Positions 1,763 through 23,539 of a stretch of DNA of 37,970 nt are shown one piece after another. This DNA comes from Chitinophaga pinensis. Its GTDB lineage: Bacteria > Bacteroidota > Bacteroidia > UKL13-3. Location: contig CALPIR020000001.1 of assembly GCA_943323675.2 (NCBI GenBank), positions 1 to 37,970 on the forward strand, read 5' to 3'. The position numbers and the translations under genes were made by a program. Under the pieces are notes generated by a model that was not told the DNA's origin, did not search any database, and saw only the letters and a program-made list of their open reading frames with translations. Each line of letters begins with the position of its first letter. Positions within the stretch are counted from its first letter, which is position 1.

Positions 1763-3004
1763 CTAGTTTATTTTGGCTCCATTAATAATCACTGTCTCTA
1801 TCAAATCAACCCCAAAACTATAAGGGATAAAAGCCAGTGATGGTATTTGTTTTGTGATGATCACATTACCCAGTTTACCTTTTGTAATACTTCCGTGTGT
1901 ATGGCTTAATTCTAGTGCATATGCTCCGTTAATTGTAGTTGCATTAATAGCTTCTTCGGGTGTCAATTTCATTTGTGTGCAAGCTAAAGAAACTACAAAA
2001 CTCATACGTCCATTTGGCGATGATCCTGGATTGTAATCGCTGGCCAAACAAAACGGTAAACCTGCATCAATTATTTGCCTACCTGGCGCATAAGGTATGC
2101 CTAAAAAGAAAGAACAATTCGGTAATCCCACCGGCATTGTATTTCCGTTTTTTAAGCTGGTAATTTCTGCTTCTCCAGTATATTCTAAATGGTCAACGCT
2201 CAATGCTTGGTGTTTAACCGCAACCTGCACACCACCTGTATATCCAAGTTCATTGCCATGTATTTTTGCTTTTAAACCATATTGTTTCGCTGCAATAAGA
2301 ATTCGTTCAGTTTCATCCACAGTAAAAAATCCTTGGTCGCAAAATACATCACAATATTCAGCTAAATTTTCAGCTGCAACTTTTGGTAACATGTCATTTA
2401 GAACCAAATTAATGTATGCTTCTCGATTTTGTTTGTACTCGGTTGGTATGGCATGTGCGCCTAAAAAGGTTGCTTTAATGGTTATGGGCGAAATTGCTTT
2501 TAAACGTTTAATAACCCGCAACATTTTTAGTTCATCTTCAACAGTAAGCCCATAACCACTTTTTATTTCAATGGCACCTGTTCCAAATTTAATCACCTCA
2601 AACAACCTGGCTTTTGCACTTTCAAACAATTCGTCTTCACTCATGGCTTGAAGCTTTCCAGCAGAGTTTAAAATACCACCACCAGCTTCAGAAATTTCTT
2701 CATAACTTTTACCCTTGATACGCATCACAAATTCTTCTTCTCTACTTTTTGCATAAACAATATGCGTGTGCGAGTCAATAAAGCACGGTAATACATATCC
2801 ATTATTGGCATCAATCACTTCGGCTGTTGTTTCTGGCAGATCATTCATAACGCCAAAGTCTTTTATAATGCCATCGGTAATTAACAAATAGGCATTATCA
2901 ATGCTATCAAGCATATTCATTTCAGTACCCGATTTTTTTTGAATGGATACATTCTGTATTATTCCGTATAACGACTTTATGTTTTTAATAAGTACTGATT
3001 TCAT
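1763..3004 (-). CDS. hutI: Imidazolonepropionase (amidohydrolase superfamily)
   Basis: Motifs DSHTHIVYA, EAGGGILNS, IKSGYGL, FLGAHAIPTEY, DVFCDQGFF, SVDHLEY and LASDYNPGSSP match HutI. I set the start at the ATG at 3004 (MKSVLIKNIK...). The longer ORF-track N-terminus (to 3262) is low-complexity and overlaps the divergent gene. Confidence 0.9.
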   Translation of the reverse strand: MKSVLIKNIKSLYGIIQNVSIQKKSGTEMNMLDSIDNAYLLITDGIIKDFGVMNDLPETTAEVIDANNGYVLPCFIDSHTHIVYAKSREEEFVMRIKGKSYEEISEAGGGILNSAGKLQAMSEDELFESAKARLFEVIKFGTGAIEIKSGYGLTVEDELKMLRVIKRLKAISPITIKATFLGAHAIPTEYKQNREAYINLVLNDMLPKVAAENLAEYCDVFCDQGFFTVDETERILIAAKQYGLKAKIHGNELGYTGGVQVAVKHQALSVDHLEYTGEAEITSLKNGNTMPVGLPNCSFFLGIPYAPGRQIIDAGLPFCLASDYNPGSSPNGRMSFVVSLACTQMKLTPEEAINATTINGAYALELSHTHGSITKGKLGNVIITKQIPSLAFIPYSFGVDLIETVIINGAKIN

Positions 3005-3089
3005 ATCACAGGCAAATAACGAACATGTTGAATAATTTAAAAAATAAATGATACTTGGTTTAGTGCTCAAGTATTTACTTTGTATAATA

Positions 3090-3608
3090 ATGAAAGATCT
3101 ACAACTAATTTTACAAACACCCGTAAAAATGGGTAATGATGTTTGGATTGCAGACACTGCGCGCGTTTTTGGATTGGTAACTTTAGGTGATGAGTGTTCG
3201 GTATGGTTTGGGGCTGTATTGCGTGGCGATGGTGATTTTATTACCGTTGGAAACCGAAGCAATATCCAAGAAAATGCCGTTGTTCACGTTGATCCAGGTT
3301 TTCCGACCCAAATTGGTAATGATTGTATTGTTGGTCATGGCGCAATAGTGCATGGAGCAAAGCTTGGAAATCATGTACTGGTAGGCATGCATGCAACGGT
3401 TTTAAACGGAGCAACGGTAGGTAATTTTTGTATAATTGGTGCTCATGCACTGGTAACTGAGGGGATGGTAATACCTGATTACAGTATTGTTATGGGTGCT
3501 CCTGGAAAGGTGGTAAAGCAATTATCTCCCGATCATATCGAAAAAGTGAAACGAAATGCGCAATCATATGTTGATCTAAGTAAGGAATATTTGAAGTATT
3601 GGAAATAA
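3090..3608 (+). CDS. Gamma-class carbonic anhydrase-like left-handed beta-helix (hexapeptide repeat) protein, YrdA/PaaY family
   Basis: Contains VWIADTARVFGLVTLGDECSVWFGAVLRGDGDFITVGNRSNIQENAVVHVD...IGHGAIVHGAKLG, with hexapeptide periodicity and the His-containing motifs of the gamma-CA family. Start set at the ATG at 3090 (MKDLQL...). Confidence 0.85.
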   Translation: MKDLQLILQTPVKMGNDVWIADTARVFGLVTLGDECSVWFGAVLRGDGDFITVGNRSNIQENAVVHVDPGFPTQIGNDCIVGHGAIVHGAKLGNHVLVGMHATVLNGATVGNFCIIGAHALVTEGMVIPDYSIVMGAPGKVVKQLSPDHIEKVKRNAQSYVDLSKEYLKYWK

Positions 3609-5487: not shown

Positions 5488-5520
5488 AAAGGGTCGGATT
5501 TAATCGACCCTTTAGTTTTT
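5488..5520. terminator. Bidirectional rho-independent terminator (end of the ABC gene and end of the dab-sulP-porin operon)
   Basis: Inverted repeat aaagggtcg (5488-5496) / cgacccttt (5505-5513) with an A-run upstream and agttttt downstream. It lies between convergent stops at 5476 (+) and 5519 (-). Confidence 0.75.
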
Positions 5521-6814
5521 AAATCGCAATTTGGAATTGCACAACCATCATGCCCTTATTAGATGTTTGTTTTAAACTTGTTGTGTTTATAATCGGTCTA
5601 CTTTGGTAGTTTAAACTAACTTTAGAGCGTTGTCCATCAATAAGCCAGTTAACGCCTATGTCCCACATACCTGTTGTACTTTTTAACCTATCGTACTTGG
5701 CCAAAGTTAAATCGGCATAAGGTTGAATTCTGTTCTCATCTGTGTTATTTTTTTTAGGTAATAGGTATCCTATTTGAGCAAACAATGTATTTCCTGTTCC
5801 GTACATAGCAAAACTATTTCCACCCCCACTTAATGTATTTCCTGTATTAATATTGGCAGGGTTTAACACACCATTATTTCTGATGTAATTTTTTCCGTAA
5901 TCTGTTTTTGACGCTGCAGCATACAAGGTTAATACACTGCCGTTGTTTTTTATAGGCTGTTCAAAAAACACATCAACTCCTAAATTAAATAATTTCTGAT
6001 GGATGATGTTTTTACTCAAAGTATCTGCATAATGCCACATGGCATCTGTTTGATATTGAAAACCTGCTCCAAATGTCAGCACTTTTTTCTTGCCTAAATA
6101 AGTTCCCGACATGTATGGTGTAACATTGCTTTCTTCATCCCAAAACTGATACATTAAATAGCCACTTGTTTGCAACTTAGGGGCATTGTAAGAAAAGTCT
6201 GAATTTAAATTTATAGCTTTGACTGAAGATATACTTGCATCAATCATTAGGGGTTTTGATAGTGCGAATCTATAATCAAACTTATCTATTTTACCCTTTG
6301 CATATACACTTAGTTTGCGCAAAAATTGGTCGTTTACATCATTAGTTGATTGTTGGTACAATGGTATATCATAACCCAATATATTTGCAGCTGATGGCGC
6401 TGCATAACGCGAAAAACCAGACCAGCCAGTTAAGCCTGTTCCTAAATGAAACAATTTCTGAGTTGGTTGATATTCTGTTACGACATCATGAAAAAATAGA
6501 CCTGGTTTACGTGAAGAATTGTATCCATAGTTATTAATACCCAATTGGGTATACATAAAAACTTTATCAGAAATTTTCCCCATTAACTGTAAACGAACCC
6601 TTCGCAATCCAACGTCAAATGTTTCATTTTCGGATTTGCCATTAATGGTTGTTCCTGGATTGTTATGTGTATATCTGGTCCAAATTTGCGCTGTAAAGTT
6701 GGCTTTTAAATAATGTGTTCCAGTTTCATTTAGACTTAATTTAAGCTCTTTTTTTTGAGCATAAAGCAACAATGCGCTTGCGCTTAACACTGCAGTTAAA
6801 AAAATGGTTTTCAT
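5519..6814 (-). CDS. Outer-membrane beta-barrel porin (anion/phosphate-selective-porin-like), last gene of the dabAB-sulP operon
   Basis: Signal peptide MKTIFLTAVLSASALLLYAQ, alternating amphipathic beta-strand pattern, aromatic-rich C-terminal strand (MMVVQFQIAI), and the segment DVGLRRVRLQLMGKISDKVFMYTQLG reminiscent of porin O/P-type proteins. It starts 9 nt after the SulP stop. Confidence 0.65.
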   Translation of the reverse strand: MKTIFLTAVLSASALLLYAQKKELKLSLNETGTHYLKANFTAQIWTRYTHNNPGTTINGKSENETFDVGLRRVRLQLMGKISDKVFMYTQLGINNYGYNSSRKPGLFFHDVVTEYQPTQKLFHLGTGLTGWSGFSRYAAPSAANILGYDIPLYQQSTNDVNDQFLRKLSVYAKGKIDKFDYRFALSKPLMIDASISSVKAINLNSDFSYNAPKLQTSGYLMYQFWDEESNVTPYMSGTYLGKKKVLTFGAGFQYQTDAMWHYADTLSKNIIHQKLFNLGVDVFFEQPIKNNGSVLTLYAAASKTDYGKNYIRNNGVLNPANINTGNTLSGGGNSFAMYGTGNTLFAQIGYLLPKKNNTDENRIQPYADLTLAKYDRLKSTTGMWDIGVNWLIDGQRSKVSLNYQSRPIINTTSLKQTSNKGMMVVQFQIAI

Positions 6815-6823
6815 ACAGTGGTT

Positions 6824-8482
6824 TTATTTTTTATTTGAAAACTTACGTGTGGCAAATGGATGTTTTGATAAAGCGGTGTGGTTCTCAAGGCCAATGATCT
6901 CGAATTCTCCACCGTCTTCTTCGTATCTTCTTGCCATCTGGTTGATTTGCTCCATTACGGTATGATCTATTAGTTTTACTCCAGTAAAATCGACCAAAAC
7001 ATTTTTGCCAGGAGGCAATTTTTCCAGTTGTTTTTTCATTCCAATATAATTGCTAAAAACTGCAGAATGCGCCACATCAATTGTATATAGATTTTGATCG
7101 GCACTCACATTAATGGTTAAAAATGGTTTAAATATACTTTTAAAAGGTACCCCATTAATAATGTGAATAATCATTTTAACTATAATGCCCACGGCTATAC
7201 CAATAAGAAGATCTGTTGCTAAAGTAGCAACAATTGTTGATATAAAGATGAAGAGTTGCTCCTTTCCAATTTTTAGTGTTTTTATAAATTCTTTTGGTGA
7301 TGCTAGGCGATAACCAGTAACCATAAGCATAGCAGCTAGCGCGGCTAATGGTATTTGGTGAATAACTTGGCTTAAGAATAATATAAACACCAATAAAAAC
7401 CCTCCATGAAAAAAATTAGCCCAACGTGTTTTTGCTCCATTATTTACATTGGCAGAACTACGCACAACTTCTGCTATTATAGGTAAGCCACCTAACATAG
7501 ATGATAATATGTTTCCCGAACCCTTAGCAAATAATTCTCGGTTAAAATTTGATTGTCGTTTAAATGGATCTAGTTTGTCTATAGCGGCTGCAGTTAACAG
7601 TGATTCTAAACTTGCCACTAGAGCATAGGTAATCATCATTTGAAATCCAAAAGAAGTAAATAAATAATCAAATCTCGGCATTATTATTCCGTCCAAAATA
7701 TTTGATGGAAGTGTAACTAAAAACTTTGGCCCTAATAAATATTCATGGCCATTTAAAAACAGGTATTTATGTTCATGTTCTAAATCAAAATAATGACCTA
7801 GTGGTATAGCAATTAATATTACTAATAAAGGGGCTGGGATCATTTTTACATATTTATTTTTAATTAGTGGTAATCCAATTAATATAATAAAACTCAATGC
7901 AGCAATAATGGCAACATCAGGATTCATGTTAATTATACTATGAGGAATTTCTGTGATTACTTCCAGCATATCCTTTCCTTGTGGTTTAACGCCTAATGCG
8001 GTGTGGAATTGTTTGGCAAAAATCATAATACCAATAGCAGCAAGCATACCATGTACAACCGAAGAAGGGAAAAAATTACTAAGAACACCTGCTTTAATTA
8101 ATCCAAATAAAATTTGAATTACACCACATCCAACACCAACAGCTAGGGTACATTGGTATGCAAACATTTCAATTTGATCTGGAGTTAAACCTTCTGGTGC
8201 TATTTTTTTAAAGCCTTCAATACTCATTAAAACAATAACGGCTAACCCTGCAGCTGGACCGTTAATAGTTAAGTGTGATCCGCTAGATAAAGACAATAAT
8301 AAACCGCCAACTACACCTGCAATTATGCCGGCCATAGGAGGTACACCACTTGCCATAGCTATACCTAAACACAATGGCAATGCGATTAGTGAAATAATAA
8401 AACCTGACAGTAAATCAGTTTTCCAATTTTCTTTTAGTCCTGCTAATCCATCAGCAGGTATATTTTTTTTAAATAAATTCAT
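6824..8482 (-). CDS. SulP-family inorganic anion transporter with C-terminal STAS domain (BicA/DauA-like)
   Basis: N-terminal DLLSGFIISLIALPLCLGIAMASGVPPMAGIIAGVVGG...INGPAAGLAVIV is the SulP signature region. It has about 10-12 TM segments and a C-terminal STAS-like domain (VLVDFTGVKLIDHTVMEQINQMARRYEEDGGEFEIIGL). It starts 15 nt after the dabB stop. Confidence 0.92.
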   Translation of the reverse strand: MNLFKKNIPADGLAGLKENWKTDLLSGFIISLIALPLCLGIAMASGVPPMAGIIAGVVGGLLLSLSSGSHLTINGPAAGLAVIVLMSIEGFKKIAPEGLTPDQIEMFAYQCTLAVGVGCGVIQILFGLIKAGVLSNFFPSSVVHGMLAAIGIMIFAKQFHTALGVKPQGKDMLEVITEIPHSIINMNPDVAIIAALSFIILIGLPLIKNKYVKMIPAPLLVILIAIPLGHYFDLEHEHKYLFLNGHEYLLGPKFLVTLPSNILDGIIMPRFDYLFTSFGFQMMITYALVASLESLLTAAAIDKLDPFKRQSNFNRELFAKGSGNILSSMLGGLPIIAEVVRSSANVNNGAKTRWANFFHGGFLLVFILFLSQVIHQIPLAALAAMLMVTGYRLASPKEFIKTLKIGKEQLFIFISTIVATLATDLLIGIAVGIIVKMIIHIINGVPFKSIFKPFLTINVSADQNLYTIDVAHSAVFSNYIGMKKQLEKLPPGKNVLVDFTGVKLIDHTVMEQINQMARRYEEDGGEFEIIGLENHTALSKHPFATRKFSNKK

Positions 8483-8497
8483 GTTATATATTTTTAA

Positions 8498-10366
8498 TTA
8501 TGATGAACGATATGGTCTGTTTAATGGTTCTTTAATATAGGGGCCTAAGAAAATTCGGGAATACATTCTTACAAGTGTAATTCCATCTAAAATTATACTT
8601 ATCGAAACCAACGATGCCAATAAAAGTTGATTTTGATGAATATGACTAAATAATAGATCTTCACCGATAAATGTTGCTGTAATAGGGAATCCTGACAACC
8701 CTAAACAGGCCATTAAAAATATAAAGGCTGTTTTCGGATATGGTATGGCATACCCATAAAAGTTATTCAGATCTATGTTTTTTTCTTTTCTTTTTAAAGT
8801 GTGAAGACAAGCATATCCAACTGCTCCCGAAACGATAACACCACTCATGTAAATAATTGCATCTTGCGCGTTAAATTGTTCGTTATACGAAACTGATAAT
8901 ACTAAGAATGCATGATTCATTATAATCATAAACCACGCGATGTATACATTATTACGCTCTATGAATGATTTTAATACCAGTTTTAAGCCTACTGCGGCAA
9001 GTATTATCGACATGTAGTTTTTTATCGAAGCTGGTATTAATTGTTGATGATATAACACATAAATAGCCGTAACAAAAAGTATTGTATATACAATAATGAT
9101 TTGGTTTATTTTAAGGAAGTCTACTTTTTTACCTAATGTTTTAAGTGTTCCCCATACATATCTATACATATACCAATCGAGGTTAAACTCTTTTATACTT
9201 AAAACGTAGATAGTATCCTTTATTCTTTTTTGCCAATTAGGAATTGATTTGTGAACTGGTTTTTCAAAATGATAAAACTGCTCTTTAATTAAATAACTAA
9301 CCAACGAAGGAGATACCAAGAGCTGATAGGTGCGTAAAAAGGCATTGCCTGCAAAATGTATTAATGCTATAATATGCCAACCACATGCAACTTCAATAAA
9401 AATAATGCCTATTTGTGCTGCTGATGAATATGCAATTTGACTTTTAACAGATGATTGAACCCTTGCTGTTAAGGTAGTAATTATAGCAGTACTTAATCCC
9501 AATAAAGCTATTATAATTCGAACTGAATATTGGTGTTCCCAAAAGGTGTATGTTCTGAATAGCAAGAACACTCCAATATGAACAGATAACGAACCATAGA
9601 AGATTGCACTTGATGGTGTTGGTCCTTCCATAGCTCGAGGAAGCCACGATGAGAAAGGAAGTTGAGCTGATTTAGCAGCTGCTGCAATTAAAATAGTTAG
9701 TGAAATAAATACACCCACAGCACTATGGCTCTGTAGTTGCTCATGCACCAAGTTATAGTTGTTTAATTTAATAAATGTAATATTTTCATGCCATAAATGA
9801 TGGCTCATCCACATGGCTAATAAAATCCCTATATCACCTATGCGATATATGCTAAAAACTTTTATCCCATTTTTAACAGGTAAATATCTATGACGATAAA
9901 ATGCTATTAACAAGAAAGATGATATACCTAAAATTTCCCACCCTAAAAATAAGGTTTCGAAATTACCTGACAATACAGTAATGCTATACCCAGTAAAAAA
10001 AAATAATATGGTGTTGAAATATCTTTTGTATCCTGTTTCTCTGTGTAAGTAGTACCTACTGTATACCGTTACCATTAATGTTAGTATTGAGCCAACAAGC
10101 AAGTATACTAAACTGATTAAATCAAAGTAAAAATCAATAGCAAACACATAATGTTTTGATTGATAAATTACCAATTCACTAATGTTTAATGCTTGATGCT
10201 CGTTTAGTAGCCAAAATATACTGAATGCGATAAGTAACAGGGTATTTAACGCAATACCTATGAATGCCGTGTACGATATAATTACTTCCTTTTTTTCGGG
10301 AATAAATAGGCTAATTATAAATGCAGCAAAAGGAATTAAAATAAATAATTGAATAAATTGTTCCAT
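8498..10366 (-). CDS. dabB: DabB: NuoL/Nad5/MrpA-like proton-conducting membrane subunit (PF00361-type), partner of DabA
   Basis: Polytopic membrane protein with GWEILGISSFLLIAFY and AAAKSAQLPFSSWLPRAMEGPTPSSAIFYGSLSVHIGVFLL motifs, including the conserved Glu and Lys of antiporter-like subunits. No other complex I or Mrp subunit is in the window. The ATG is 3 nt after the dabA stop. Confidence 0.88.
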   Translation of the reverse strand: MEQFIQLFILIPFAAFIISLFIPEKKEVIISYTAFIGIALNTLLLIAFSIFWLLNEHQALNISELVIYQSKHYVFAIDFYFDLISLVYLLVGSILTLMVTVYSRYYLHRETGYKRYFNTILFFFTGYSITVLSGNFETLFLGWEILGISSFLLIAFYRHRYLPVKNGIKVFSIYRIGDIGILLAMWMSHHLWHENITFIKLNNYNLVHEQLQSHSAVGVFISLTILIAAAAKSAQLPFSSWLPRAMEGPTPSSAIFYGSLSVHIGVFLLFRTYTFWEHQYSVRIIIALLGLSTAIITTLTARVQSSVKSQIAYSSAAQIGIIFIEVACGWHIIALIHFAGNAFLRTYQLLVSPSLVSYLIKEQFYHFEKPVHKSIPNWQKRIKDTIYVLSIKEFNLDWYMYRYVWGTLKTLGKKVDFLKINQIIIVYTILFVTAIYVLYHQQLIPASIKNYMSIILAAVGLKLVLKSFIERNNVYIAWFMIIMNHAFLVLSVSYNEQFNAQDAIIYMSGVIVSGAVGYACLHTLKRKEKNIDLNNFYGYAIPYPKTAFIFLMACLGLSGFPITATFIGEDLLFSHIHQNQLLLASLVSISIILDGITLVRMYSRIFLGPYIKEPLNRPYRSS

Positions 10367-10369
10367 TTG

Positions 10370-12877
10370 TTATGCTCCTATTAAATGTACTGGAATATTT
10401 TCGCCTGATGACAAGATCAACTCGTACATCTTATCTGCTTTGGGTATCTTAATTTCAAATGGCTCGTAGGTATCAAATCTTCCTTTATTGTATCTAAAAA
10501 ATTCGCCATTTTCTGGATTAACTACAACCAGATTAATCCATTCATTTTCAAACCATGCTGAGGTTTCTGCTGATTGATCAAGTGTTTGTTTAACCACATC
10601 GGGTAAATGTTCAATTACCATTAATAACCTAATTGGATTGTGCACTTCTATCATTTGCGAGGGTAATCCTGGACGTATATCTCCATCTATGCCGTTTGCA
10701 ACACCAACCAAACCCATTACATTATGAGGTAGTTTACTGCCTGCACCTAACTTCTGGTTATCAACTCTAGAAAAATAATACTCTAAATTAATGCCACCGC
10801 ATACAGGTGCTGCCGCCTTTAGTATGTTTAACAGCCATTTACCTTCAGGGTCAATTTTGTAATCATAAGAGTTCATAAAAGCGCGTCTGTCTAAAAATAT
10901 GCCATGCGTAATCTCCCTTCTACCTATTATGCATAAGCTATTGGTTGCATGGTTAAGTTCTGGTCGTGGTTCAAATAGAGAAACAGATCGTGTTTTAATT
11001 TTTTCATGTACATATTTTGCAGGTTTTTTTGTATTTACAACTTCAAACCTGCGTGATCGTTCTCTCGCGTTCTCATCTAATGCGTTGTTAAATGTGTGTT
11101 TGTTTTCTCGGTGAAGATAAATGTGTTTTTCACGTAGGTTTTCTTCATCATAAAAAACCATTTCATCTCTTGTGGTATCATGTAAAGCGGCAATAAACAC
11201 CGTATTAACTGGAATGTTTATTCCTGCTATTTTAAGTATTTCTCTAACCTCTGTGTTGTTTGCCATTTGGCAAAAAACACGTGCATTAACTGAACCAGGT
11301 CTGCCACTGCAAGCACCGCAATCATATGCAGCATAATGAGGATTATTTACACTGCTAGAACCATGACCAATAACATATACAATTGGTGCAAAATCATGAA
11401 TTAAACCAATGCTTTTTAATACGGCCTCCAATCTATTTGCCATTTCTATTTGTGAAAAACCAACTTGTAAATTATGCAGATTGGGTTGATTAGGATGGTA
11501 TTCAACTGTAAGTTTAGATAGTTTTTCCATATGCCTTAATGAGGTTGCTGTGGCCGGACTCATGGAAGGTTTAAACAAGTTAACGCACAATCTTAATGCC
11601 GACCAAAACCCTAATGTTTGAGAAATAAGCCAACCTGTAACTAAATTATGTGAGTGCTTACTTAAGTGTACATCTTTATCTATCGTTCTGCTGCTATCAT
11701 ATTCCTTTATTAAAAATTTAGGAGTAATTGGTACTGGACATGATTTGGTTAAGAATTTACCATGCTCAGGTTGATAATAGAATTCAACACCAAAGTGGCC
11801 GGGAGTCCCAAAAGTTTCGCATTTATTGTTTAACTGTTCAACATGTCTTCTTATAGAGCATTCCCTATCATCTATACAAAATAATGCTTGAAAGCTTTTA
11901 TCTTTAATTGATATAGATTTTGTTGATGGAATACTATTTTGTTTTACAGCGCAAAGAATGCTATCGTAATATGTCCACTCGTAGGCTTCTTGCCACATAT
12001 TAACTAATTCTTGATATTCGCTTTTATCAATTGCAGCAAAAAGGCTAGTTGGAGCCATTTCAACTTTTTCAGATATCGGCTTCCAATTGTTTCCTAAATA
12101 AAAGGTGAGTGCGTCAATTTCTAAAAGTAATTCAAATGCTATAAAATCATGAAGTGTTATGTTGCGCTTATCAAGTAAAGTTTCTGGTTGATCTTCTATT
12201 GTAGCCACTAATCCAGACCAACCTGGATGACTAAATTGTTGATCGAAAAGATAATTTTCAAACCACATTTCATCTCCAACCACTATGTGCAGCAATGCAG
12301 GTAACTTACATTGAGAGTGTAGTAATAAATTTCTAGCGCGTTCAGTTTTAAAGAAACTAACATGGCTATTACGCTCAAGCTCACGTAGAGATGAAAGAAA
12401 TCCTTTGTGCTCAATTGGAAAATTATCAATAGCAATCCCTTGGTCAAGATAGCTGCATAATATCCTAAATAATAAAGGCTGAATCTGATTATCTAAATCA
12501 ATTCTAAAGGAGTCTTTCCAATACGCACGTAGCTTGCCAATTCTTATGTCGCATGTTGGTTTAATTGATTTGTTTAACATTTTCTCTTTCCATTCAACTA
12601 AACAATTTGCTCCTTTATATTTAATAATAACATTGTTTAGTATCTTATCATTAATTTCATTTTTCCCATATAAGTCATGGTACTCGATTAAAGTTAGAAA
12701 AGTATTAAATCCGAATATTTCAGTTGCCTGATTTAACCCATCAATAAAGTTTAAGTGTTGAAATGCATGTAAAGTATTATGATGTACAAAGTCTTTTAAT
12801 GGTGCCTGACTTGGCAAATAATGCTTGAGATTGTGCAGCACATGCTCTTCTGCAAATGCCGATTTTTTTATATCCAT
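10370..12877 (-). CDS. dabA: DabA: DUF2309-family inorganic carbon pump subunit with beta-carbonic-anhydrase-like metal site
   Basis: 835 aa. Motifs seen: LKDFVHHNTLHAF near the N-terminus, FCIDDRECSIRRH (CxDxR), VIGHGSSSVNNPHYAAYDCGACSGRPG, GGINLEYYFSRVDNQKLGAGSKLPHNV. Size, motif order and pairing with a NuoL-like gene fit DUF2309/DabA (MpsB). Confidence 0.9.
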   Translation of the reverse strand: MDIKKSAFAEEHVLHNLKHYLPSQAPLKDFVHHNTLHAFQHLNFIDGLNQATEIFGFNTFLTLIEYHDLYGKNEINDKILNNVIIKYKGANCLVEWKEKMLNKSIKPTCDIRIGKLRAYWKDSFRIDLDNQIQPLLFRILCSYLDQGIAIDNFPIEHKGFLSSLRELERNSHVSFFKTERARNLLLHSQCKLPALLHIVVGDEMWFENYLFDQQFSHPGWSGLVATIEDQPETLLDKRNITLHDFIAFELLLEIDALTFYLGNNWKPISEKVEMAPTSLFAAIDKSEYQELVNMWQEAYEWTYYDSILCAVKQNSIPSTKSISIKDKSFQALFCIDDRECSIRRHVEQLNNKCETFGTPGHFGVEFYYQPEHGKFLTKSCPVPITPKFLIKEYDSSRTIDKDVHLSKHSHNLVTGWLISQTLGFWSALRLCVNLFKPSMSPATATSLRHMEKLSKLTVEYHPNQPNLHNLQVGFSQIEMANRLEAVLKSIGLIHDFAPIVYVIGHGSSSVNNPHYAAYDCGACSGRPGSVNARVFCQMANNTEVREILKIAGINIPVNTVFIAALHDTTRDEMVFYDEENLREKHIYLHRENKHTFNNALDENARERSRRFEVVNTKKPAKYVHEKIKTRSVSLFEPRPELNHATNSLCIIGRREITHGIFLDRRAFMNSYDYKIDPEGKWLLNILKAAAPVCGGINLEYYFSRVDNQKLGAGSKLPHNVMGLVGVANGIDGDIRPGLPSQMIEVHNPIRLLMVIEHLPDVVKQTLDQSAETSAWFENEWINLVVVNPENGEFFRYNKGRFDTYEPFEIKIPKADKMYELILSSGENIPVHLIGA

Positions 12878-12971
12878 GAAAATAGAATAAAATAAAATAA
12901 TAAATAGGAATTGAGACGATGGCTGTGGTTCGCTATCGTTTTAGCGTGGTTAGCGCCAAAGCATAAAAATC

Positions 12972-13307
12972 CTAAATAGTTAGCCGACTAACTAGCAAAT
13001 ATTTCGGGAATATACTCGCTTTATTCAGTTGGAAAATGAGAGCTCTAAGACGCGTATTTACTGACGCACAACTCAATGAGTTAAACCCAAAAAGTAAAAT
13101 GAATATTAAACCTAAAGAAGATATTTCTATTTTAATATTTCCATCTTCTATCTCTATATCTTCAGATAATAAGAGAGGTATGCTATGATGTGTGTTTTTT
13201 ACAGAATGGTGGTATACTTTAGCAAAAGGAGTTCCTACCTTTGATAACAAAGGATTGACTAAAATTAGTAGTGAAAAAACTAGAATTAAACTTTTGCGAA
13301 AAATCAC
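12972..13307 (-). CDS. Hypothetical small membrane protein (GTG start), upstream of dabA
   Basis: 111-codon ORF filling most of an otherwise non-coding 555-nt gap. It has an N-terminal hydrophobic segment (LILVFSLLILVNPLL), a His-rich stretch (YHHSVKNTHHS) and a second TM (LGLIFILLFGF). It has a non-ATG start and no recognisable family, so coding status is uncertain. Confidence 0.35.
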   Translation of the reverse strand: MIFRKSLILVFSLLILVNPLLSKVGTPFAKVYHHSVKNTHHSIPLLLSEDIEIEDGNIKIEISSLGLIFILLFGFNSLSCASVNTRLRALIFQLNKASIFPKYLLVSRLTI

Positions 13308-13432
13308 AATTCAAATATAACTTATTTCGGATATACATTTCATTTTTATGCGAGTTTTAATACAGTAAATTTTAGGGTAGGTTTAGTAGCCATCAACTAA
13401 TATCTTATCTTCACGGCCTAGTATATAAACAG

Positions 13433-16638: not shown

Positions 16639-18345
16639 ATGCAGCAACACGTACATTCTATAGCCATAACTTGTGGTTTACTTGGCATTAAACATGTGGT
16701 AATCAGCCCTGGATCTCGGTCTGCACCCTTAGTTTTGGCTTTTGCCCAGCATACAAATTTTATTATTCATGTAGCAATTGACGAGAGGTGTGCTGCTTAT
16801 ATGGCCTTGGGAATGGCCCAACAAAAACAAATTCCCGTTGTACTTATTTGTACTTCTGGTACAGCTGTGGCCAATTATTACCCTGCTATAACCGAAGCTT
16901 TTTACCAAAAAATACCGCTTTTAGTGCTTACAGCTGATCGCCCTGAGGATTTACTTGACCAACAGGATGGACAAATGATTAACCAGAAAAACCTATTTGG
17001 ACACCACGTAAGGGCTTTTTATCAATTAAATTGTTACCCTCATGGATCTGAAAATAACCGTGAAACAACAGTTATAGTTGCCGAAGCAATCGGGTTAACT
17101 ACATTCCCCGCAAAAGGGCCAGTACATATTAATGTACCTTTAAAAGAACCCCTTTACCCCAAATCACTTTTACCTAATCACATCCGAAAACTTGAAAAAA
17201 GTATTCTCAATTGGTTAAACCATCATGTTTACAAGCCAATAGACGGCATTTCTAACAATGATTTTATTGAACTTGAACAAGCATGGATAAGTGCATCAAA
17301 AAAAATGATTTTAATAGGGCAGGGAGCAATGCACGAAAAATGGATTACACCTTTATTGGCATTAAAGAATCAAGCAGATGTGGTAATTATTGCAGATGTT
17401 GTGAGTAATAAACATGCTATGGCCAATGTGCACCATGTAGATAAATTACTTAGTGCGGTTGATAGTAAAACGCTAAAAGAACTATCGCCAGATTTACTGA
17501 TTAGCTTTGGTGGACCTATATTGTCAAAAAGCCTTAAAAATTGGTTAAAGCAACAAAAACCTTCTTGGCATTTTCGTATTCAACAAGAGCCTGAGCAAAT
17601 TAACACATATAATAATGTTACCAAATTTCTGAGAGCTACTGTTGATGAAACATTACAACAGATAGCAGCAATTAAGTTGAATCAAAATCCTGAGGCAATG
17701 TTTATGAATAAATGGATTAAAGCTTCTTTTGACATAGAAAAAAAAATAACTGCATTTGCAAAAAAACCAATATGGAGTGAGTTGCACGCAACGTATCATT
17801 TATTAAACCATGTTCCTGATTGTTCTAATTTACAATTGGCTAATAGCAGTGTTGTGCGTTATGTTAGTTGGCTTGATATGTTAAATGAAAGTTGGATTAT
17901 AAATAGCAATAGGGGAACCAGTGGTATAGATGGGTGCACAAGCACAGCACTGGGTGCTGCAAAAGTAAATTTAAGGCAAACTGTATTACTAACTGGTGAT
18001 ATTGCATTTTTGTACGATAAAAATGCGTTTTGGTTGAATGAAATTCCACAGAATTTACGTGTAGTTGTATTTAATAATGGAGGCGGTGGAATATTTACTT
18101 TAATTGACGGACCAACTTATCATAAACAGTTTGCACATTTGTTTACTACACCGCATCAACGCAATGTAAAATCTGTTGCTGTTGATAATGGATTAGATTA
18201 TTACTTTTGCGAATCTTACAGCAATTTAAATAAAGTACTTACTCAGTTTTTTGAACCAACAAATGGTGCTGCAGTTTTAGAATTAAAGTTTGATATGAAG
18301 AAAAACGCAAAAATATTTGAAGCATTTAAAAAGATAAAACTATAA
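16639..18345 (+). CDS. menD: 2-succinyl-5-enolpyruvyl-6-hydroxy-3-cyclohexene-1-carboxylate synthase (ThDP enzyme)
   Basis: 568 aa. N-terminus GIKHVVISPGSRSAPL, LTADRP motif, and ThDP-binding GDIAFLYDKN...VVVFNNGGGGIF. Confidence 0.9.
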   Translation: MQQHVHSIAITCGLLGIKHVVISPGSRSAPLVLAFAQHTNFIIHVAIDERCAAYMALGMAQQKQIPVVLICTSGTAVANYYPAITEAFYQKIPLLVLTADRPEDLLDQQDGQMINQKNLFGHHVRAFYQLNCYPHGSENNRETTVIVAEAIGLTTFPAKGPVHINVPLKEPLYPKSLLPNHIRKLEKSILNWLNHHVYKPIDGISNNDFIELEQAWISASKKMILIGQGAMHEKWITPLLALKNQADVVIIADVVSNKHAMANVHHVDKLLSAVDSKTLKELSPDLLISFGGPILSKSLKNWLKQQKPSWHFRIQQEPEQINTYNNVTKFLRATVDETLQQIAAIKLNQNPEAMFMNKWIKASFDIEKKITAFAKKPIWSELHATYHLLNHVPDCSNLQLANSSVVRYVSWLDMLNESWIINSNRGTSGIDGCTSTALGAAKVNLRQTVLLTGDIAFLYDKNAFWLNEIPQNLRVVVFNNGGGGIFTLIDGPTYHKQFAHLFTTPHQRNVKSVAVDNGLDYYFCESYSNLNKVLTQFFEPTNGAAVLELKFDMKKNAKIFEAFKKIKL

Positions 18346-18359
18346 ATTAAAATAACAAT

Positions 18360-19184
18360 ATGGAAAGTAAATATGATTGGCAAATCATCAAAGAATACAA
18401 AGAAATAAAATTTTCTTTTTTCGAAGGTGTAGCTAAAATTAGTATCAACCGACCTGAAAAGCACAACGCCTTCACGCCATTAACCGTAAAGGAAATGAGT
18501 GAAGCTATGGAATTAGCTCGCCAAGATGAGAATGTATACTGTGTAATTTTAACAGGAGAGGGTGGGAAAGCATTTTGTAGTGGTGGCGATCAAAGTGTTC
18601 GTGGGCATGGTGGTTATATTGGTAATGATGGCATTCCGCGTTTAAATGTACTGGATTTACAAATGCAAATTCGCAGAATACCCAAACCAGTAATTGCGAT
18701 GGTAGCAGGTTATGCAATTGGCGGCGGACATGTGTTGCACGTGATTTGCGATTTAACTATTGCTGCAGAAAATGCTAAATTTGGTCAAACAGGTCCTAAA
18801 GTTGGTAGTTTTGACGGTGGTTTTGGTGCTGGTTATTTGGCACGTTTAGTAGGCCAAAAGAAGGCTCGTGAAATTTGGTTTTTGTGTGATCAATATAACG
18901 CACAAGAAGCATTAGATATGGGCTTGGTAAATAAAGTTGTTCCCCTAGAAATGCTTGAGGACGCTACTTTAGATTGGTGCCGTAAGATTATGGAGAAAAG
19001 TCCTATTGCATTGCGAATGCTTAAAAGTGCATTCAATGCCGAATTAGACGGACAAGCGGGTATACAAGAGTTGGCTGGTAACAGTACGTTGTTGTATTAT
19101 ATGAGTGACGAAGCCAAAGAAGGCAAAAACTCTTTCTTGGAAAAACGCAAGCCGGACTTTAAAAAGTTTCCTAAGTTCCCTTAG
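18360..19184 (+). CDS. menB: 1,4-dihydroxy-2-naphthoyl-CoA synthase
   Basis: Near-canonical MenB sequence: [99 protein letters not shown]. Confidence 0.95.
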
Positions 19185-20952: not shown

Positions 20953-21732
20953 TTATCCCTTAGCTTGTTCGGGTAGTGATTGTAATATTCCATCCCAAAG
21001 TTCAAGTCTTGCTTGTAAACTTTTTTTCACCCAAAATTCAGCTTCAGCAATTTTTGTTTCGTCATTTCCGCAAAGCTCTTCAGTCATGGCTAATGCAAGA
21101 TGGCTATGGTGATCTCCGTCTACTTCAATATGTCTTTCTAAATAGTATTTAAATGTGCTGAATTGGCCATTGCTTTTTTGATTGAGGTCGTTAACCAAAC
21201 CAATAAACATTGCCGGAATTAGATCTTCTCTGCCAAAGGTAAAAACTGCTGCCATTACATGTGGCTTATTCGTAGCAATTACATCAAAGGTGGTTTTTAC
21301 AAATTGCCTTACAGATGGAACTTTAACTTCGTTTAACGCATCTTCAATCAACTTCCCATTTCGCAGCATGTTTACAAAACTTTCAATCGTTTTTGTATCC
21401 GCCTTGGCTTGTGTCATGCTTTTAAGGTATAACTCAAAATGACTGGTTCTATTGCCGTGCTCATCCACATCACTTTCTTCACCTACAACAATTTCATTTA
21501 TCAAATACCTGGTTGATGCATTGCCAACAGGAAACCAAGGAATATTTACATTGGTTAAATGAATTTGCAAACTTTTTAGTAAACTCATAAAGTCCCAAAC
21601 GGCAAATACATGTTGTTCCATAAACAACCTCACATCATCGGGATGATGCATGCGTTTATATAACGGGTGATTAATAAGTTTTTCCTTTTGAGCTAAAGTG
21701 TTGTCTTGGATAATCGTTGTTCCTTTATTCAT
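20953..21732 (-). CDS. DUF3050-family protein (heme-oxygenase-like helical fold)
   Basis: Start set at the ATG at 21732. Motifs HVFAVWDFMSLLKSLQ, IPWFPVGNASTRYLINEIVVGEESDVDEHG, TFGREDLIPAMF and FKYYLERHIEVDGDHHSHLA match my recollection of DUF3050. Confidence 0.65.
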   Translation of the reverse strand: MNKGTTIIQDNTLAQKEKLINHPLYKRMHHPDDVRLFMEQHVFAVWDFMSLLKSLQIHLTNVNIPWFPVGNASTRYLINEIVVGEESDVDEHGNRTSHFELYLKSMTQAKADTKTIESFVNMLRNGKLIEDALNEVKVPSVRQFVKTTFDVIATNKPHVMAAVFTFGREDLIPAMFIGLVNDLNQKSNGQFSTFKYYLERHIEVDGDHHSHLALAMTEELCGNDETKIAEAEFWVKKSLQARLELWDGILQSLPEQAKG

Positions 21733-21757
21733 ATTTCGGTTGATCAACTTGGGTTGA

Positions 21758-22546
21758 TTATCCTTTAAAATTTGCTGTGCGTTTTTCTAAAAATGCTTGT
21801 GTTCCTTCTTTAAAATCTTCGGTGCCAAAGAAGTTACCAAACTCGTTAATCTCAACATTATTGCCATCCATTTTTTTATCGTAATGTGCATTGACACAAC
21901 GAACAACAGACGCAATGGCTAGAGGTGCTTTGGATTTCACTTTATTTAAAATTTCTTCACATTTAGCTATTAGTTGGTCTTGTGGTACCACGTGGTTAAC
22001 CAAGCCAATTCTGTGTGCCTCTGCTGCATTTATAACATCGCCAGTAACCAGTAACTCTAATGCGCGACCACGACCTACCAATTGAGCCAGGCGTTGCGTG
22101 CCTGCATAGCCAGGTACTAAACCTAAATTAACTTCAGGTTGACCGAACTTGGCGTTTTCTGCAGCAACTCTGATGTGGCATGCCATGGCTAATTCACAAC
22201 CTCCTCCTAATGAAAATCCATTAACCGCTGCAATAACTGGTTTAGGGCACTTTTCTATAGCATTTAAAACACCATGTCCATCTGCACTCATGCGTGTGCC
22301 TTCTTCTACATTGAAGTTAGCAAATTCTGCAATATCAGCACCTGCCGCAAAAGCTTTAGCTCCCGCACCTGTAAGTATCACACCTTGTACTTCTTTGTTT
22401 TCGTAAATTGCGATTATGGCTTCTTTTATATCTTTAAGCGTTTGTATATTTAACGCATTCAATTTGGTTTCTCTGTTTATGGTCAAATATAAAATACCGT
22501 TTTCTATGCGAGTTGTGATGTTGTCACTCATTGCTATCGTACTCAT
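21758..22546 (-). CDS. Enoyl-CoA hydratase/isomerase (crotonase superfamily)
   Basis: Contains [80 protein letters not shown] and EGTQAFLEKR. Confidence 0.9.
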   Translation of the reverse strand: MSTIAMSDNITTRIENGILYLTINRETKLNALNIQTLKDIKEAIIAIYENKEVQGVILTGAGAKAFAAGADIAEFANFNVEEGTRMSADGHGVLNAIEKCPKPVIAAVNGFSLGGGCELAMACHIRVAAENAKFGQPEVNLGLVPGYAGTQRLAQLVGRGRALELLVTGDVINAAEAHRIGLVNHVVPQDQLIAKCEEILNKVKSKAPLAIASVVRCVNAHYDKKMDGNNVEINEFGNFFGTEDFKEGTQAFLEKRTANFKG

Positions 22547-22567
22547 TTAATTTTAAATATTTTTGTA

Positions 22568-22975
22568 TTAAAACTGTCTGTTTTGGGCAACCCAAATTTT
22601 AATGTAATCAGATATTTCACTAGTGTGTGCTCCTGGAGCAAATAATTTACCAACTCCAAGTTTCGATAATTCAATCATGTCTTCATTCGGTATGATGCCA
22701 CCACCAGTAACCAACACATCATTTAAACCTTCTTTTTTTAACAATTCCATAATGCGCGGAAAAACGGTGTTGTGTGCTCCAGATAAAATACTTACCCCTA
22801 TCACATCAACATCTTCTTGTAATGCAGCTTGTACCACCATTTCTGGTGTTTGGCGAAGACCAGTGTAAATAACTTCCATGCCAGCATCTCGCAAAGCTGT
22901 GGCAATCACTTTGGCTCCTCTGTCGTGTCCATCAAGACCAACCTTGGCAACTAAAACGCGTATGGGTCTGTTCAT
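22568..22975 (-). CDS. Stand-alone cobalamin (B12)-binding domain protein, methylmalonyl/isobutyryl-CoA mutase small-subunit type
   Basis: 135 aa. [34 protein letters not shown] contains the DxHxxG B12-binding motif. The rest is a Rossmann-like domain identical in layout to the mutase C-terminal domain. Confidence 0.88.
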
Positions 22976-23539
22976 TTAATTAATTGTGTTTGATGTTAGT
23001 TTTTTAAGCTTAATACTATGGTTGCTTTTTAATTCTTTGTTTACGTATTGTACAAAATTTGCATCGTGCATTTCATATACAAAAACCGAATCATTGTTGT
23101 TGTTTAAACGAAGGAATTTAGGTTTAAAAAACTTTTTCAAATCAGTATTTTTGCTTTCGTCTACTGCTGGGTAAATGGTTAATGATTTTTTATCGACCAC
23201 ATGTACCATACAATTCCAATAGTCTGGGTCTTCATTATCTTTATTAGACAGTACAAAATATTTATTTTGTACCAACGATAAAACTTGATTACTGCTTAAT
23301 GGTTTTACTTCCGTTTTACTACTGTCTTTTATGATTACTGATGTTTGGGTAATACTATAAAATAGGGTATCGGTGCTCATGTTTTTTTTACCTACTATAC
23401 CTGAAGGTACAACTAGGTAATAAGTTCCAATCATTTGTTCGGGAAAAACAAGTTGCGCCTCCCCTGGATAACGATCAAACTTACCCATGGTGCAACTTGA
23501 TATTGCTAAAACAAATAATATGGAAAACGTATTTTTCAA
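22976..23539 (-). CDS. Hypothetical lipoprotein (TTG start)
   Basis: MKNTFSILFVLAISSCTMG contains a lipobox-like ISSC. Its stop TAA abuts the ATG of the B12-binding gene (TAAATG), and it starts 8 nt after the gltX stop. Confidence 0.55.
   Translation of the reverse strand: MKNTFSILFVLAISSCTMGKFDRYPGEAQLVFPEQMIGTYYLVVPSGIVGKKNMSTDTLFYSITQTSVIIKDSSKTEVKPLSSNQVLSLVQNKYFVLSNKDNEDPDYWNCMVHVVDKKSLTIYPAVDESKNTDLKKFFKPKFLRLNNNNDSVFVYEMHDANFVQYVNKELKSNHSIKLKKLTSNTIN

Follow-up and report, generated by a model that had tools for sequence, protein, structure and literature searches.

A His-type lineage of DAB-family proteins, linked to SulP genes, as a candidate CO2/HCO3− acquisition module of a freshwater Bacteroidota heterotroph

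Mechanistic knowledge of the DAB/DAC/MpsAB pumps comes entirely from systems with a leucine at position 658 of DabA2 or 825 of DabA1 (Leu-type systems), through the genetics of 2017–2021 and two cryo-electron microscopy studies of 2026. The closest described systems are DAB2 of Halothiobacillus neapolitanus (PDB codes 9rd0, 9rd8 and 9rd9), DAB1 (DabA–DabB–DabC; Thermocrinis albus, H. neapolitanus, Nitrobacter) and MpsAB of Staphylococcus aureus, a DAB-family system of a non-autotroph with a proposed role in supplying HCO3− to central metabolism. The 2026 structural papers describe Leu658 and Trp656 of DabA2 as strictly conserved, and report that Leu658/Leu825 occupies the position of His397 in CsosCA, the alpha-carboxysomal carbonic anhydrase and closest structural relative of DabA; the conservation analyses of both papers sampled relatives of DabA2 or DabA1 only. 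In the same papers DAB2 is impaired by E444A/Q in DabA2 and by H260A, H343A and K347A in DabB2, and its activity is halved by I151E; single mutations at five DabA2 positions, including A376, H684, P704 and W656 (W656R/C), uncouple DabA2, and L658Q created no in-vitro activity. Lo et al. count the finger of DabA, which bears Glu444, as part of the proton path, a view that Phillips et al. dispute. Homologues of DAB and MpsAB have been noted in heterotrophs, and specifically in Bacteroidetes (Fan et al. 2019; Desmarais et al., preprint), so that the presence of a DAB in a Bacteroidota heterotroph is not new. Here we describe such a locus, dabA–dabB with a sulP and a porin gene, on a contig of 37,970 nucleotides (CALPIR020000001.1, positions 1 to 37,970; hereafter the window), which departs from the Leu-type systems in both subunits.

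The two core genes are minus-strand open reading frames (ORFs) of 835 and 622 amino acids, set 3 nt apart. The larger protein matches the PF10070 profile over its full length (714.8 bits, E=1.8e-214, profile positions 2–747 of 747) and DabA2 (9rd0_A) over residues 324–791 only (phmmer, 192.5 bits, E=1.2e-55); it carries LKDFVHHNTLHAF (27–39), FCIDDRECSIRRH (333–345), GHGSS (504–508), YDCGACSGRPG (518–528), GGINLEYYFS (694–703) and KLPHNV (715–720). The smaller protein matches PF00361 (134.6 bits) and PF00662 (31.6 bits) and carries GWEILGISSFLLIAFY (142–157) and AAAKSAQLPFSSWLPRAMEGPTP (229–251). A sequence-only reading of this DNA had quoted these motifs and assigned the proteins to DUF2309/DabA and to the PF00361 antiporter subunits, and both assignments are borne out. 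It had also held that the membrane protein belongs to neither complex I nor Mrp, and placed the pair in a heterotroph-like Bacteroidota context; in agreement with this, no other nuo or mrp gene was found by Pfam scans of the ORFs or by tblastn with E. coli NuoJ/K/L/M/N, which matched dabB only, and the 38 kb contain no RuBisCO or carboxysome gene. The pair can thus be assigned to the DAB/DAC/MpsAB family in the broad sense. The proposed two-gene architecture has to be corrected, as it overlooked sulP and the porin gene: the actual unit is a conserved dabA–dabB–sulP(–porin) cluster, all on one strand, with gaps of 15 nt between dabB and sulP and of 9 nt between sulP and the porin gene. The proposed likeness to DAB2 and MpsAB survives for the pairing of PF10070 with PF00361 and does not extend to the gene order of nine Leu-type loci or to the conserved and essential features of DabA and DabB. 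As in DAB2, there is no DabC and dabA stands before dabB; in nine of nine Leu-type loci examined, MpsAB-type included, the order is B then A. Unlike DAB2, the present system is linked to a SulP and a porin and belongs to a heterotroph.

For the residue comparison, the window proteins were aligned with 21–22 orthologues of their clade, a fragment of HnDabA2 and nine named canonical systems; functional residues were defined from the two 2026 structural papers. The canonical systems, from the plasmid collection and one outgroup metagenome-assembled genome (MAG), are those of MpsAB-type Staphylococcus, Haloarcula, Pantoea, Pseudoalteromonas, Methylocystis, Phaeobacter, Nocardia, Nitrobacter DAB1 and L024. 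The resulting reference set of 10 DabA and 9 DabB sequences covers Bacillota, Halobacteria, Alpha- and Gammaproteobacteria, Actinomycetota and DAB1-type operons.

The catalytic core of DabA is shared with the studied systems. The zinc ligands C334/H505/C520, the dyad D336/R338 and the NNP…DCGAC loop are invariant in the alignment across all sequences compared, so that the predicted zinc site (Cys-His-Cys, of the type of beta-carbonic anhydrases) and the Asp-Arg dyad are intact. The NNP....DCGACxG loop, which joins transmembrane helix (TM) 11 of DabB to the active site, is present as NNPHYAAYDCGACSG (residues 511–525, with N511, N512, D519 and C520 conserved). With DabA2 the protein further shares the RPE core and a hydrophobic membrane hairpin, and with DAB1 the same two core families and the same zinc site.

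Around this core the protein differs at positions that define the studied pumps. The Leu658 position, at which beta-carbonic anhydrases have Gln or His, holds His (His643 in the window) in 22/22 clade orthologues and in at least 113 of the 120 nearest clusters, and Leu in HnDabA2 and all nine canonical outgroups (10/10). At the finger, position 444 is Glu in ten of ten canonical DabAs and mostly Gln in the window clade (Gln420 in the window); the hairpin GWLISQTLGFWSA is conserved in the lineage, with an alignment block ISQ-TL-G vs the canonical FVE-xx-G. The coupling motif reads SLFEPRPELNH in the window (DWSQVRPEWGL in DabA2), SLFEPRPE(L/Y)(N/D)H in the clade and DWxxxRPEWGL in canonical proteins, and only R-P-E is common. 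The lid motif (GTPGHFG in the window, mostly GTPGFFG across the clade) keeps the Gly residues and the second Phe and replaces Ala376 by Pro. Compared with DAB1, the match to NNPYESALDCGACGG is partial and that to DW(xxx)RPEWGL is limited to RPE; His stands for the Leu825 equivalent, the equivalents of His229, His312 and Lys316 of DabB are replaced, and the window holds no DabC gene, sulP being the only gene between or after dabA and dabB. CsosCA, by its description, has His397 at the site of His643; it is soluble, carboxysome-bound and devoid of a membrane partner, unlike DabA. By alignment, His643 would lie in the active site and correspond to the His that serves CsosCA and some β-carbonic anhydrases as hydrogen-bond donor or proton shuttle.

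DabB differs from its studied counterparts in a complementary manner. It matches E. coli NuoL with 121 bits and other DabBs with 31–85 bits (31.5 bits for staphylococcal L026), and a search of the PDB ranks 9rd0_B 33rd for the window DabB and 6th for the L024 DabB. At the same time it falls below all NCBIfam cutoffs for NuoL, MrpA, NdhF and hydrogenase-4 (NuoL, 203.6 vs 556 bits; also 191.3 vs 407.5 bits), and it adjoins dabA at every locus examined, in several phyla. The separation from NuoL and MrpA drawn in the sequence-only reading is therefore upheld by the cutoffs and the constant dabA neighbour, and not by similarity, which is higher to NuoL than to the DabBs. The AlphaFold2 (AF2) model (predicted local distance difference test score 76.3) superimposes on E. 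coli NuoL at 3.0 Å root-mean-square deviation over 359 columns. Like NuoL and mitochondrial ND5, its best matches, DabB has the TM5 Glu, both ion pairs (kept throughout the clade), the TM7 Lys, broken TM7 and TM12 helices and an acidic residue in TM12. Unlike them, it lies outside a nuo operon, has Tyr for the TM8 His and Asn and Arg for the TM11 His and Lys, and misses the region of the C-terminal lateral helix: its C-terminus aligns to NuoL 346–439 only, NuoL ~440–613 (long lateral helix and last TM) has no counterpart in the alignment or the AF2 model, and ~130–165 residues are inserted between TM11 and TM12 relative to NuoL.

Residue equivalences with DabB2 were taken via E. coli NuoL and the published NuoL-to-DabB2 correspondences. 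DabB shares with DabB2 the NuoL-like TM1–11 core and keeps the equivalents of Ser256, Lys310, His339, Lys235, Asp185 and Arg182. It differs in length (622 vs 551 residues), in Glu144 vs Ile151, in a TM12 Glu of its own and in Tyr/Asn/Arg vs His260/His343/Lys347. At NuoL positions 254/338/342, Tyr/Asn/Arg is invariant in the window clade and His/His/Lys is found in canonical DabBs; the Tyr at 254 is invariant also in the divergent His-type partners, where NuoL and nine of nine canonical DabBs have His. Both the NuoL TM5 Glu and the Lys/Asp half-channel of TM12 are lost from DabB in the characterised DAB1/DAB2 subtype. In the TM12 motif of the window clade G559, F560, P561, F566, G568, E569, D570 and L571 are invariant in 25 sequences; E569/D570 align to K399/D400 of NuoL, the Glu of NuoM and the Lys of NuoN; the helix is discontinuous in the AF2 model, breaking at 557/564; and the motif was found in none of the nine canonical DabBs. 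Mean column identity of DabB in the clade is 75%, with E144, K232, K308, H337 and E569/D570 invariant. The invariance of these intramembrane charged residues argues for a working ion path.

The signature is not peculiar to the window. DabA orthologues of 48–98% identity occur in 23 genome loci, which are not phylogenetically independent, and the dabA–dabB–sulP–porin cluster recurs across Bacteroidota. The lineage signature is present among the 120 nearest DabA and 120 nearest DabB clusters, and cultured carriers include Runella, Arcicella, Spirosoma, Larkinella, Flectobacillus, Rhodocytophaga and Chryseotalea, and also Sphaerisporangium. An exhaustive search of 1.84 billion representatives gave 1,613 DabA-family clusters at E≤1e-30; in the best 150 of these 1,613 (51% to ~35% identity) His stands at the Leu658 site wherever it is covered, and Glu at the finger position in one of the 150. 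Members of ~1,000 amino acids occur in Myxococcota, Planctomycetota and Actinomycetota, and RPE-x-(G/N)-H is present in 120/120 relatives of one of them; the lineage is found also in a Verrucomicrobiales MAG. Outside Bacteroidota sulP typically precedes dabA. The DabB partners of the long-form DabAs have Glu144, both ion pairs, Tyr254 and Arg342 in common. Where this DabB is short, a second PF00361 polypeptide follows, so that the membrane part is split over two polypeptides as in DAB1; L039 and L044 have the TM12 acidic motif on this second polypeptide, the motif was not detected in L043, and in L042 the second ORF is incomplete, with neither a PF00361 match nor the motif. Together these comparisons point to a large, deep and uncharacterised His-type DAB lineage with coordinated changes in its two subunits. 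Literature searches, with subscription-only papers (e.g., the 2021 J. Bacteriol. work on DAC) outside their scope, returned neither an experimental study of such a system in Bacteroidota, as the sequence-only reading had supposed, nor a description of a His-type or SulP-linked DAB. What we have not found described is thus the deep His-type lineage, its coordinated two-subunit changes and its lineage-specific SulP partnership.

Several of the loci compared show further variation in gene content. The groundwater Flavobacteriia MAG has a tandem dabA–dabA–dabB arrangement (L011, 392–7863), and in the Haliangium contig a second dabA–dabB set directly follows the first (L044, 7001–16997); on Nitrobacter hamburgensis plasmid 1 (L033) two DAB1 operons stand in tandem, together with a P-II gene. 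A high-GC metagenome contig has, upstream of its long His-type dabA, a partial ORF (L036, 3–212) that ends in a Fis-type helix-turn-helix typical of sigma-54 activators and could encode an operon regulator. A divergent LysR gene is often present at Leu-type loci (L028, L029, L030 and L032). In Rhodocytophaga rosea (L034, CP048222.1, 12680–14860) a histidine kinase/response regulator pair lies directly downstream of dabB on the opposite strand, and was not seen at the other loci.

Among the related loci that reach past dabB, a SulP gene neighbours dabAB in 19/20 and the porin gene as well in 13/20, the order sometimes differing; no other gene family recurs in the related loci beyond close relatives. 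In the fetched flanks of Leu-type loci, SulP was found in none of nine. The linkage is therefore specific to the His-type lineage. The staphylococcal plasmid homologue L026 illustrates the opposite state: it is Leu-type, its DabB has His/His/Lys, mpsA (B) precedes mpsB (A) and there is no SulP. The order sulP–dabA–dabB1(–dabB2), with stop and start codons that overlap, is found in Sphaerisporangium krabiense, Haliangium sp. and two metagenome contigs, and P0243 is a natural SulP–DabA fusion of 1,390 amino acids, followed by a 622-aa DabB and a small gene resembling β-carbonic anhydrases. The DAB-linked SulPs of Myxococcota and Actinomycetota and that of the fusion are 40–59% identical to the window SulP, which matches PF00916 with 211.5 bits. 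Fusions and gene pairs of SulP proteins with carbonic anhydrases have reportedly been described (Felce & Saier 2004). The present case resembles these and BicA in that a SulP is coupled genetically, and in P0243 by fusion, to an enzyme of beta-carbonic-anhydrase fold, and the same logic suggests bicarbonate as the probable SulP substrate; it differs in that the partner is the large DabA with a NuoL-like subunit, vs a small soluble beta-carbonic anhydrase. The porin has a signal peptide, the C-terminal beta-signal QFQIAI and 45 Lys and Arg vs 29 Asp and Glu. It matches PF07396 (Porin_O_P) with 21.9 bits (cutoff 20.9) over a short stretch only, and ExtI weakly (69 bits); a comparison with PDB sequences gave zero matches.

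At the fusion locus (L037, 14057–14602; likewise L038, 13758–14303) the protein encoded after dabB has 181 amino acids and a weak match to Pro_CA (PF00484); it may be a beta-carbonic-anhydrase-like component of the operon.

The explanation that we favour, as on balance probable, is that dabA–dabB–sulP–porin provides a freshwater Bacteroidota heterotroph with a CO2/HCO3− acquisition module coupled to an ion gradient, the module being of His type and wired differently from the studied DABs. The porin would pass HCO3− across the outer membrane and SulP across the inner membrane. DabA would hydrate the CO2 that enters by diffusion or arises from HCO3− in the cytoplasm, and the direction of this hydration would be set by the flow of ions through DabB. 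The cytoplasmic HCO3− pool would in this manner be kept available to biotin carboxylases, anaplerosis and carbamoyl-phosphate synthesis where external CO2 is scarce, e.g., in alkaline surface water. Within DabB, Glu144, both NuoL ion pairs, Lys232, Lys308, His337 and the TM12 Glu569 would form a complete antiporter-like path, and the hairpin of DabA, whose residues are purely hydrophobic or polar, would therefore no longer be the supplier of a carboxylate, in keeping with Gln420 for Glu444. The two lineages would then be complementary, with the carboxylate on the DabA finger in Leu-type systems and on DabB TM12 in His-type systems. With His643 and a NuoL-like DabB, both subunits would also be closer to their presumed ancestors (beta-carbonic anhydrase/CsosCA and NuoL) than those of the studied DABs.

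A number of observations weigh against this explanation. CO2 hydration, its direction, the coupling ion (H+ or Na+) and the SulP substrate are all inferred from sequence. The AF2 model of DabA is poor at the active site and finger and of low confidence at the catalytic core, so that the placement of His643 rests on the alignment to 9rd0; a fold search of this model against the PDB gave no significant match (best E=1.7), in a Foldseek set dated 2026-04-08 that apparently lacks 9rd0. The clade differs at four of the five DabA2 sites at which single mutations uncouple (A376, H684, P704 and W656), natural differences that are compatible with an uncoupled carbonic anhydrase as well. Three DabB sites whose Ala mutants cripple DAB1 and DAB2 are Tyr, Asn and Arg here, and the DabB ion path could be altered, Na+-using or non-conducting. 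The neighbour-joining tree of DabB does not settle its placement (bootstrap 54 and 30), and is too weak to choose between an ancestral-like DabB and an independently recruited NuoL. SulP proteins carry many different anions, and the window SulP scores 113.9 bits against the NCBIfam BicA equivalog, with a cutoff of 880. Runella sp. (L035), L010 and L040 have no adjoining SulP; the linkage is frequent and not universal. Finally, the operon is deduced from spacing and the terminal hairpin alone, no conserved promoter or regulator having been found.

A stronger version, which we regard as tentative and rather doubtful, is that His-type SulP–DabA–DabB(–porin) systems are a distinct, ancestral-like vectorial carbonic anhydrase, in which SulP would be a physical third subunit, DabB would have its own NuoL-type path and His643 would replace the need for the finger carboxylate. 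If this were true, the lineage would connect NuoL plus beta-carbonic anhydrase to the studied DABs as a natural missing link. The dispute on the finger/elbow proton path would be settled, since a Glu on the finger coincides exactly with the lack of a carboxylate in DabB TM12. Heterotrophic Bacteroidota, Myxococcota, Actinomycetota and Planctomycetota would further share a widespread supercomplex for HCO3−/CO2 uptake.

The main rival to a coupled pump, which we consider unlikely, is a membrane-anchored, uncoupled and reversible carbonic anhydrase acting with SulP in a bicarbonate transport metabolon, with DabB mainly as anchor or regulator. At the SulP mouth, DabA with His643 would bring CO2 and HCO3− to equilibrium, as carbonic anhydrase II does on SLC26/AE transporters and as in SulP–carbonic anhydrase fusions. 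The canonical active-site His that is missing from DAB1 and DAB2 is present here, the uncoupling sites differ as described, the equivalents of DabB His260, His343 and Lys347 are replaced, and sulP and dabA are translationally coupled or even fused; all of this would suit such an arrangement. An anchor, however, would not be expected to conserve its sequence and its intramembrane charged residues as DabB does, and DabB is retained in every His-type locus examined. The L658Q variant of DabA2, inactive in vitro, indicates that a polar residue at this site is not enough to uncouple the enzyme, and with DabA as an ordinary carbonic anhydrase the extra small beta-carbonic-anhydrase-like gene at the fusion locus would be superfluous.

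Improbable, and more so than the metabolon, is that uptake of another anion (e.g., sulfate) is primary, with SulP and the porin importing it in return for HCO3−, and DabAB building the HCO3− pool that drives the exchange. PF00916 comprises the sulfate permeases, and exchange of anions for HCO3− is widespread among SLC26 proteins. Beside BicA, the nearest solved relatives of the SulP comprise exchangers or non-bicarbonate types, and the porin is weakly similar to the phosphate/anion porin OprO/P and to ExtI, the porin of a selenite/tellurite operon. Genes of sulfate assimilation (cysDNHIJ and similar), however, are neither in the window nor recurrent in related loci, and the association with a CO2-hydrating enzyme holds in several phyla whatever the neighbouring genes. 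To our knowledge, the characterised bacterial SulPs (BicA, SLC26Dg and DauA) are symporters, not exchangers. That the NuoL-like gene encodes a stray subunit of a respiratory or Mrp complex, incidentally beside dabA, is suggested by its scores, higher for NuoL/ND5 than for DabB2 and all other DabBs, and by the NuoL-type Glu144, ion pairs and TM12 motif, and is nevertheless highly improbable and effectively refuted by synteny, as dabA is its neighbour at every locus in several phyla, the 38 kb hold no other nuo or mrp gene, its scores lie far under the NuoL equivalog cutoffs, NuoL residues ~440–613 are missing and its signature residues co-vary with those of DabA.

The comparison has consequences beyond this genome. 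The lineage is carried by common freshwater and soil heterotrophs and breaks published conservation rules in both subunits together. The finger Glu444 and the DabB TM12 carboxylate each occur where the other is lacking, and this reciprocal pattern provides a natural experiment that bears directly on the coupling between proton flow and CO2 hydration. The SulP linkage and the fusion predict a combined CO2/HCO3− uptake machine in non-autotrophs, of relevance to aquatic Bacteroidota and their anaplerotic carbon fixation, and to the engineering of carbon-concentrating modules. These predictions are directly testable, since cultured carriers exist (Runella, Spirosoma, Arcicella, Flectobacillus, Rhodocytophaga and Sphaerisporangium).

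Table 1 Coordinates of the genes, signature residues and flanking features of the locus in the window
Feature	Position	Strand	Remarks
dabA	10370..12877	-	835 aa; PF10070; predicted cytoplasmic beta-carbonic-anhydrase-like subunit of the His-type lineage
dabB	8498..10366	-	622 aa; PF00361 + PF00662; predicted NuoL-like ion-translocating membrane subunit
sulP	6824..8482	-	552 aa; PF00916; SLC26/SulP anion transporter with C-terminal STAS domain; putative HCO3− transport
porin	5519..6814	-	431 aa, basic; outer-membrane; putative anion-favouring channel
DabA C334-I-D336-D-R338	11864..11878	-	First Zn ligand and Asp-Arg dyad; = DabA2 C351/D353/R355
DabA H505...C520 (GHGSSSVNNPHYAAYDC)	11318..11365	-	Second and third Zn ligands, NNP..DCGAC loop; = DabA2 H524/C539, N530/N531
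DabA R638-P-E-L-N-H643	10949..10966	-	Lineage signature; His for Leu658 of DabA2 (Leu825 of DabA1), Leu for Trp656
DabA Q420, finger/elbow membrane hairpin (GWLISQTLGFWSA)	11618..11620	-	Site of the essential Glu444 of DabA2
DabA lid motif GTPGHFG	11789..11809	-	Canonical GxAGFFG
DabB E144	9935..9937	-	NuoL TM5 Glu kept; Ile151 in DabB2; non-acidic in 9/9 canonical DabBs
DabB Y257	9596..9598	-	Site of NuoL His254 / DabB2 His260
DabB N341-A-F-L-R345	9332..9346	-	Sites of NuoL His338/Lys342, DabB2 His343/Lys347
DabB TM12 broken-helix motif GFPITATFIGEDLLF (559–573), E569/D570	8648..8692	-	= NuoL ..AGFFSKDEIL, NuoM GNFVGEF, NuoN GFIGKF
Hairpin, 10-bp stem	5488..5513		Between convergent porin and ABC-transporter genes; sequence verified
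Region upstream of dabA	12878..13432	-	555 bp, divergent from MATE gene; single Bacteroidota-type -7 box TATATTTG at 13312–13319

The hairpin that follows the porin stop codon is likely a bidirectional terminator and the end of the operon. The other end is less well defined. The -7 box TATATTTG, the only one of Bacteroidota type detected upstream of dabA, is not conserved and is a weak promoter candidate; a sigma-70 scan gave background (44 found vs 41 expected). Conservation of the 555-bp region was not seen beyond relatives of 98% identity, and an Rfam search returned zero RNA families in the window, hence no riboswitch 5' of dabA. An ORF of 111 amino acids (12972–13307, minus strand) was considered as DabC and rejected, as it is kept only in relatives of at least 98% identity and has no Pfam match. 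It encodes two hydrophobic segments, sits between the candidate -7 box and dabA, and is probably no gene; an untranslated leader of ~430 nt would be left unexplained if the box were real and this ORF no gene.

The GC content of the window is uniform (33–39%), and the neighbours include the housekeeping genes metG, gltX, citrate synthase, secG, lptC/E and birA. On these two grounds a horizontal-transfer island was rejected and the locus is regarded as chromosomal and native to its freshwater Bacteroidota MAG. The 'Bacteroidetes bacterium RE-16jun15-135' locus (L002) is 98% identical to the window. A contig of 5859 bp from a MAG labelled 'uncultured Neisseria sp.' (L001, CAZJFO010000079.1) is 100% identical to the MATE–dabA–dabB stretch of the window; it is probably mis-binned, because all other relatives are Bacteroidota.

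Elsewhere in the window, the HutI (imidazolonepropionase) ORF at 1763–3262 (minus strand) is listed from a TTG codon with ~120 extra N-terminal residues before the TIGR01224 match, and its true start probably lies further downstream; an ORF of 186 amino acids at 3048–3608 (plus strand) overlaps it on the opposite strand. A thiamine diphosphate enzyme (TPP_enzyme_N and TPP_enzyme_M_2) followed by an enoyl-CoA hydratase-family protein (16639–19184, plus strand) resembles the menD–menB pair of menaquinone synthesis, ~3.8 kb from the dab operon; bicarbonate is a cofactor for some MenB enzymes. At 20953–23539 (minus strand) genes for a DUF3050 protein, an enoyl-CoA hydratase and a stand-alone B12-binding-domain protein (135 aa) are clustered with an unannotated 187-aa ORF.

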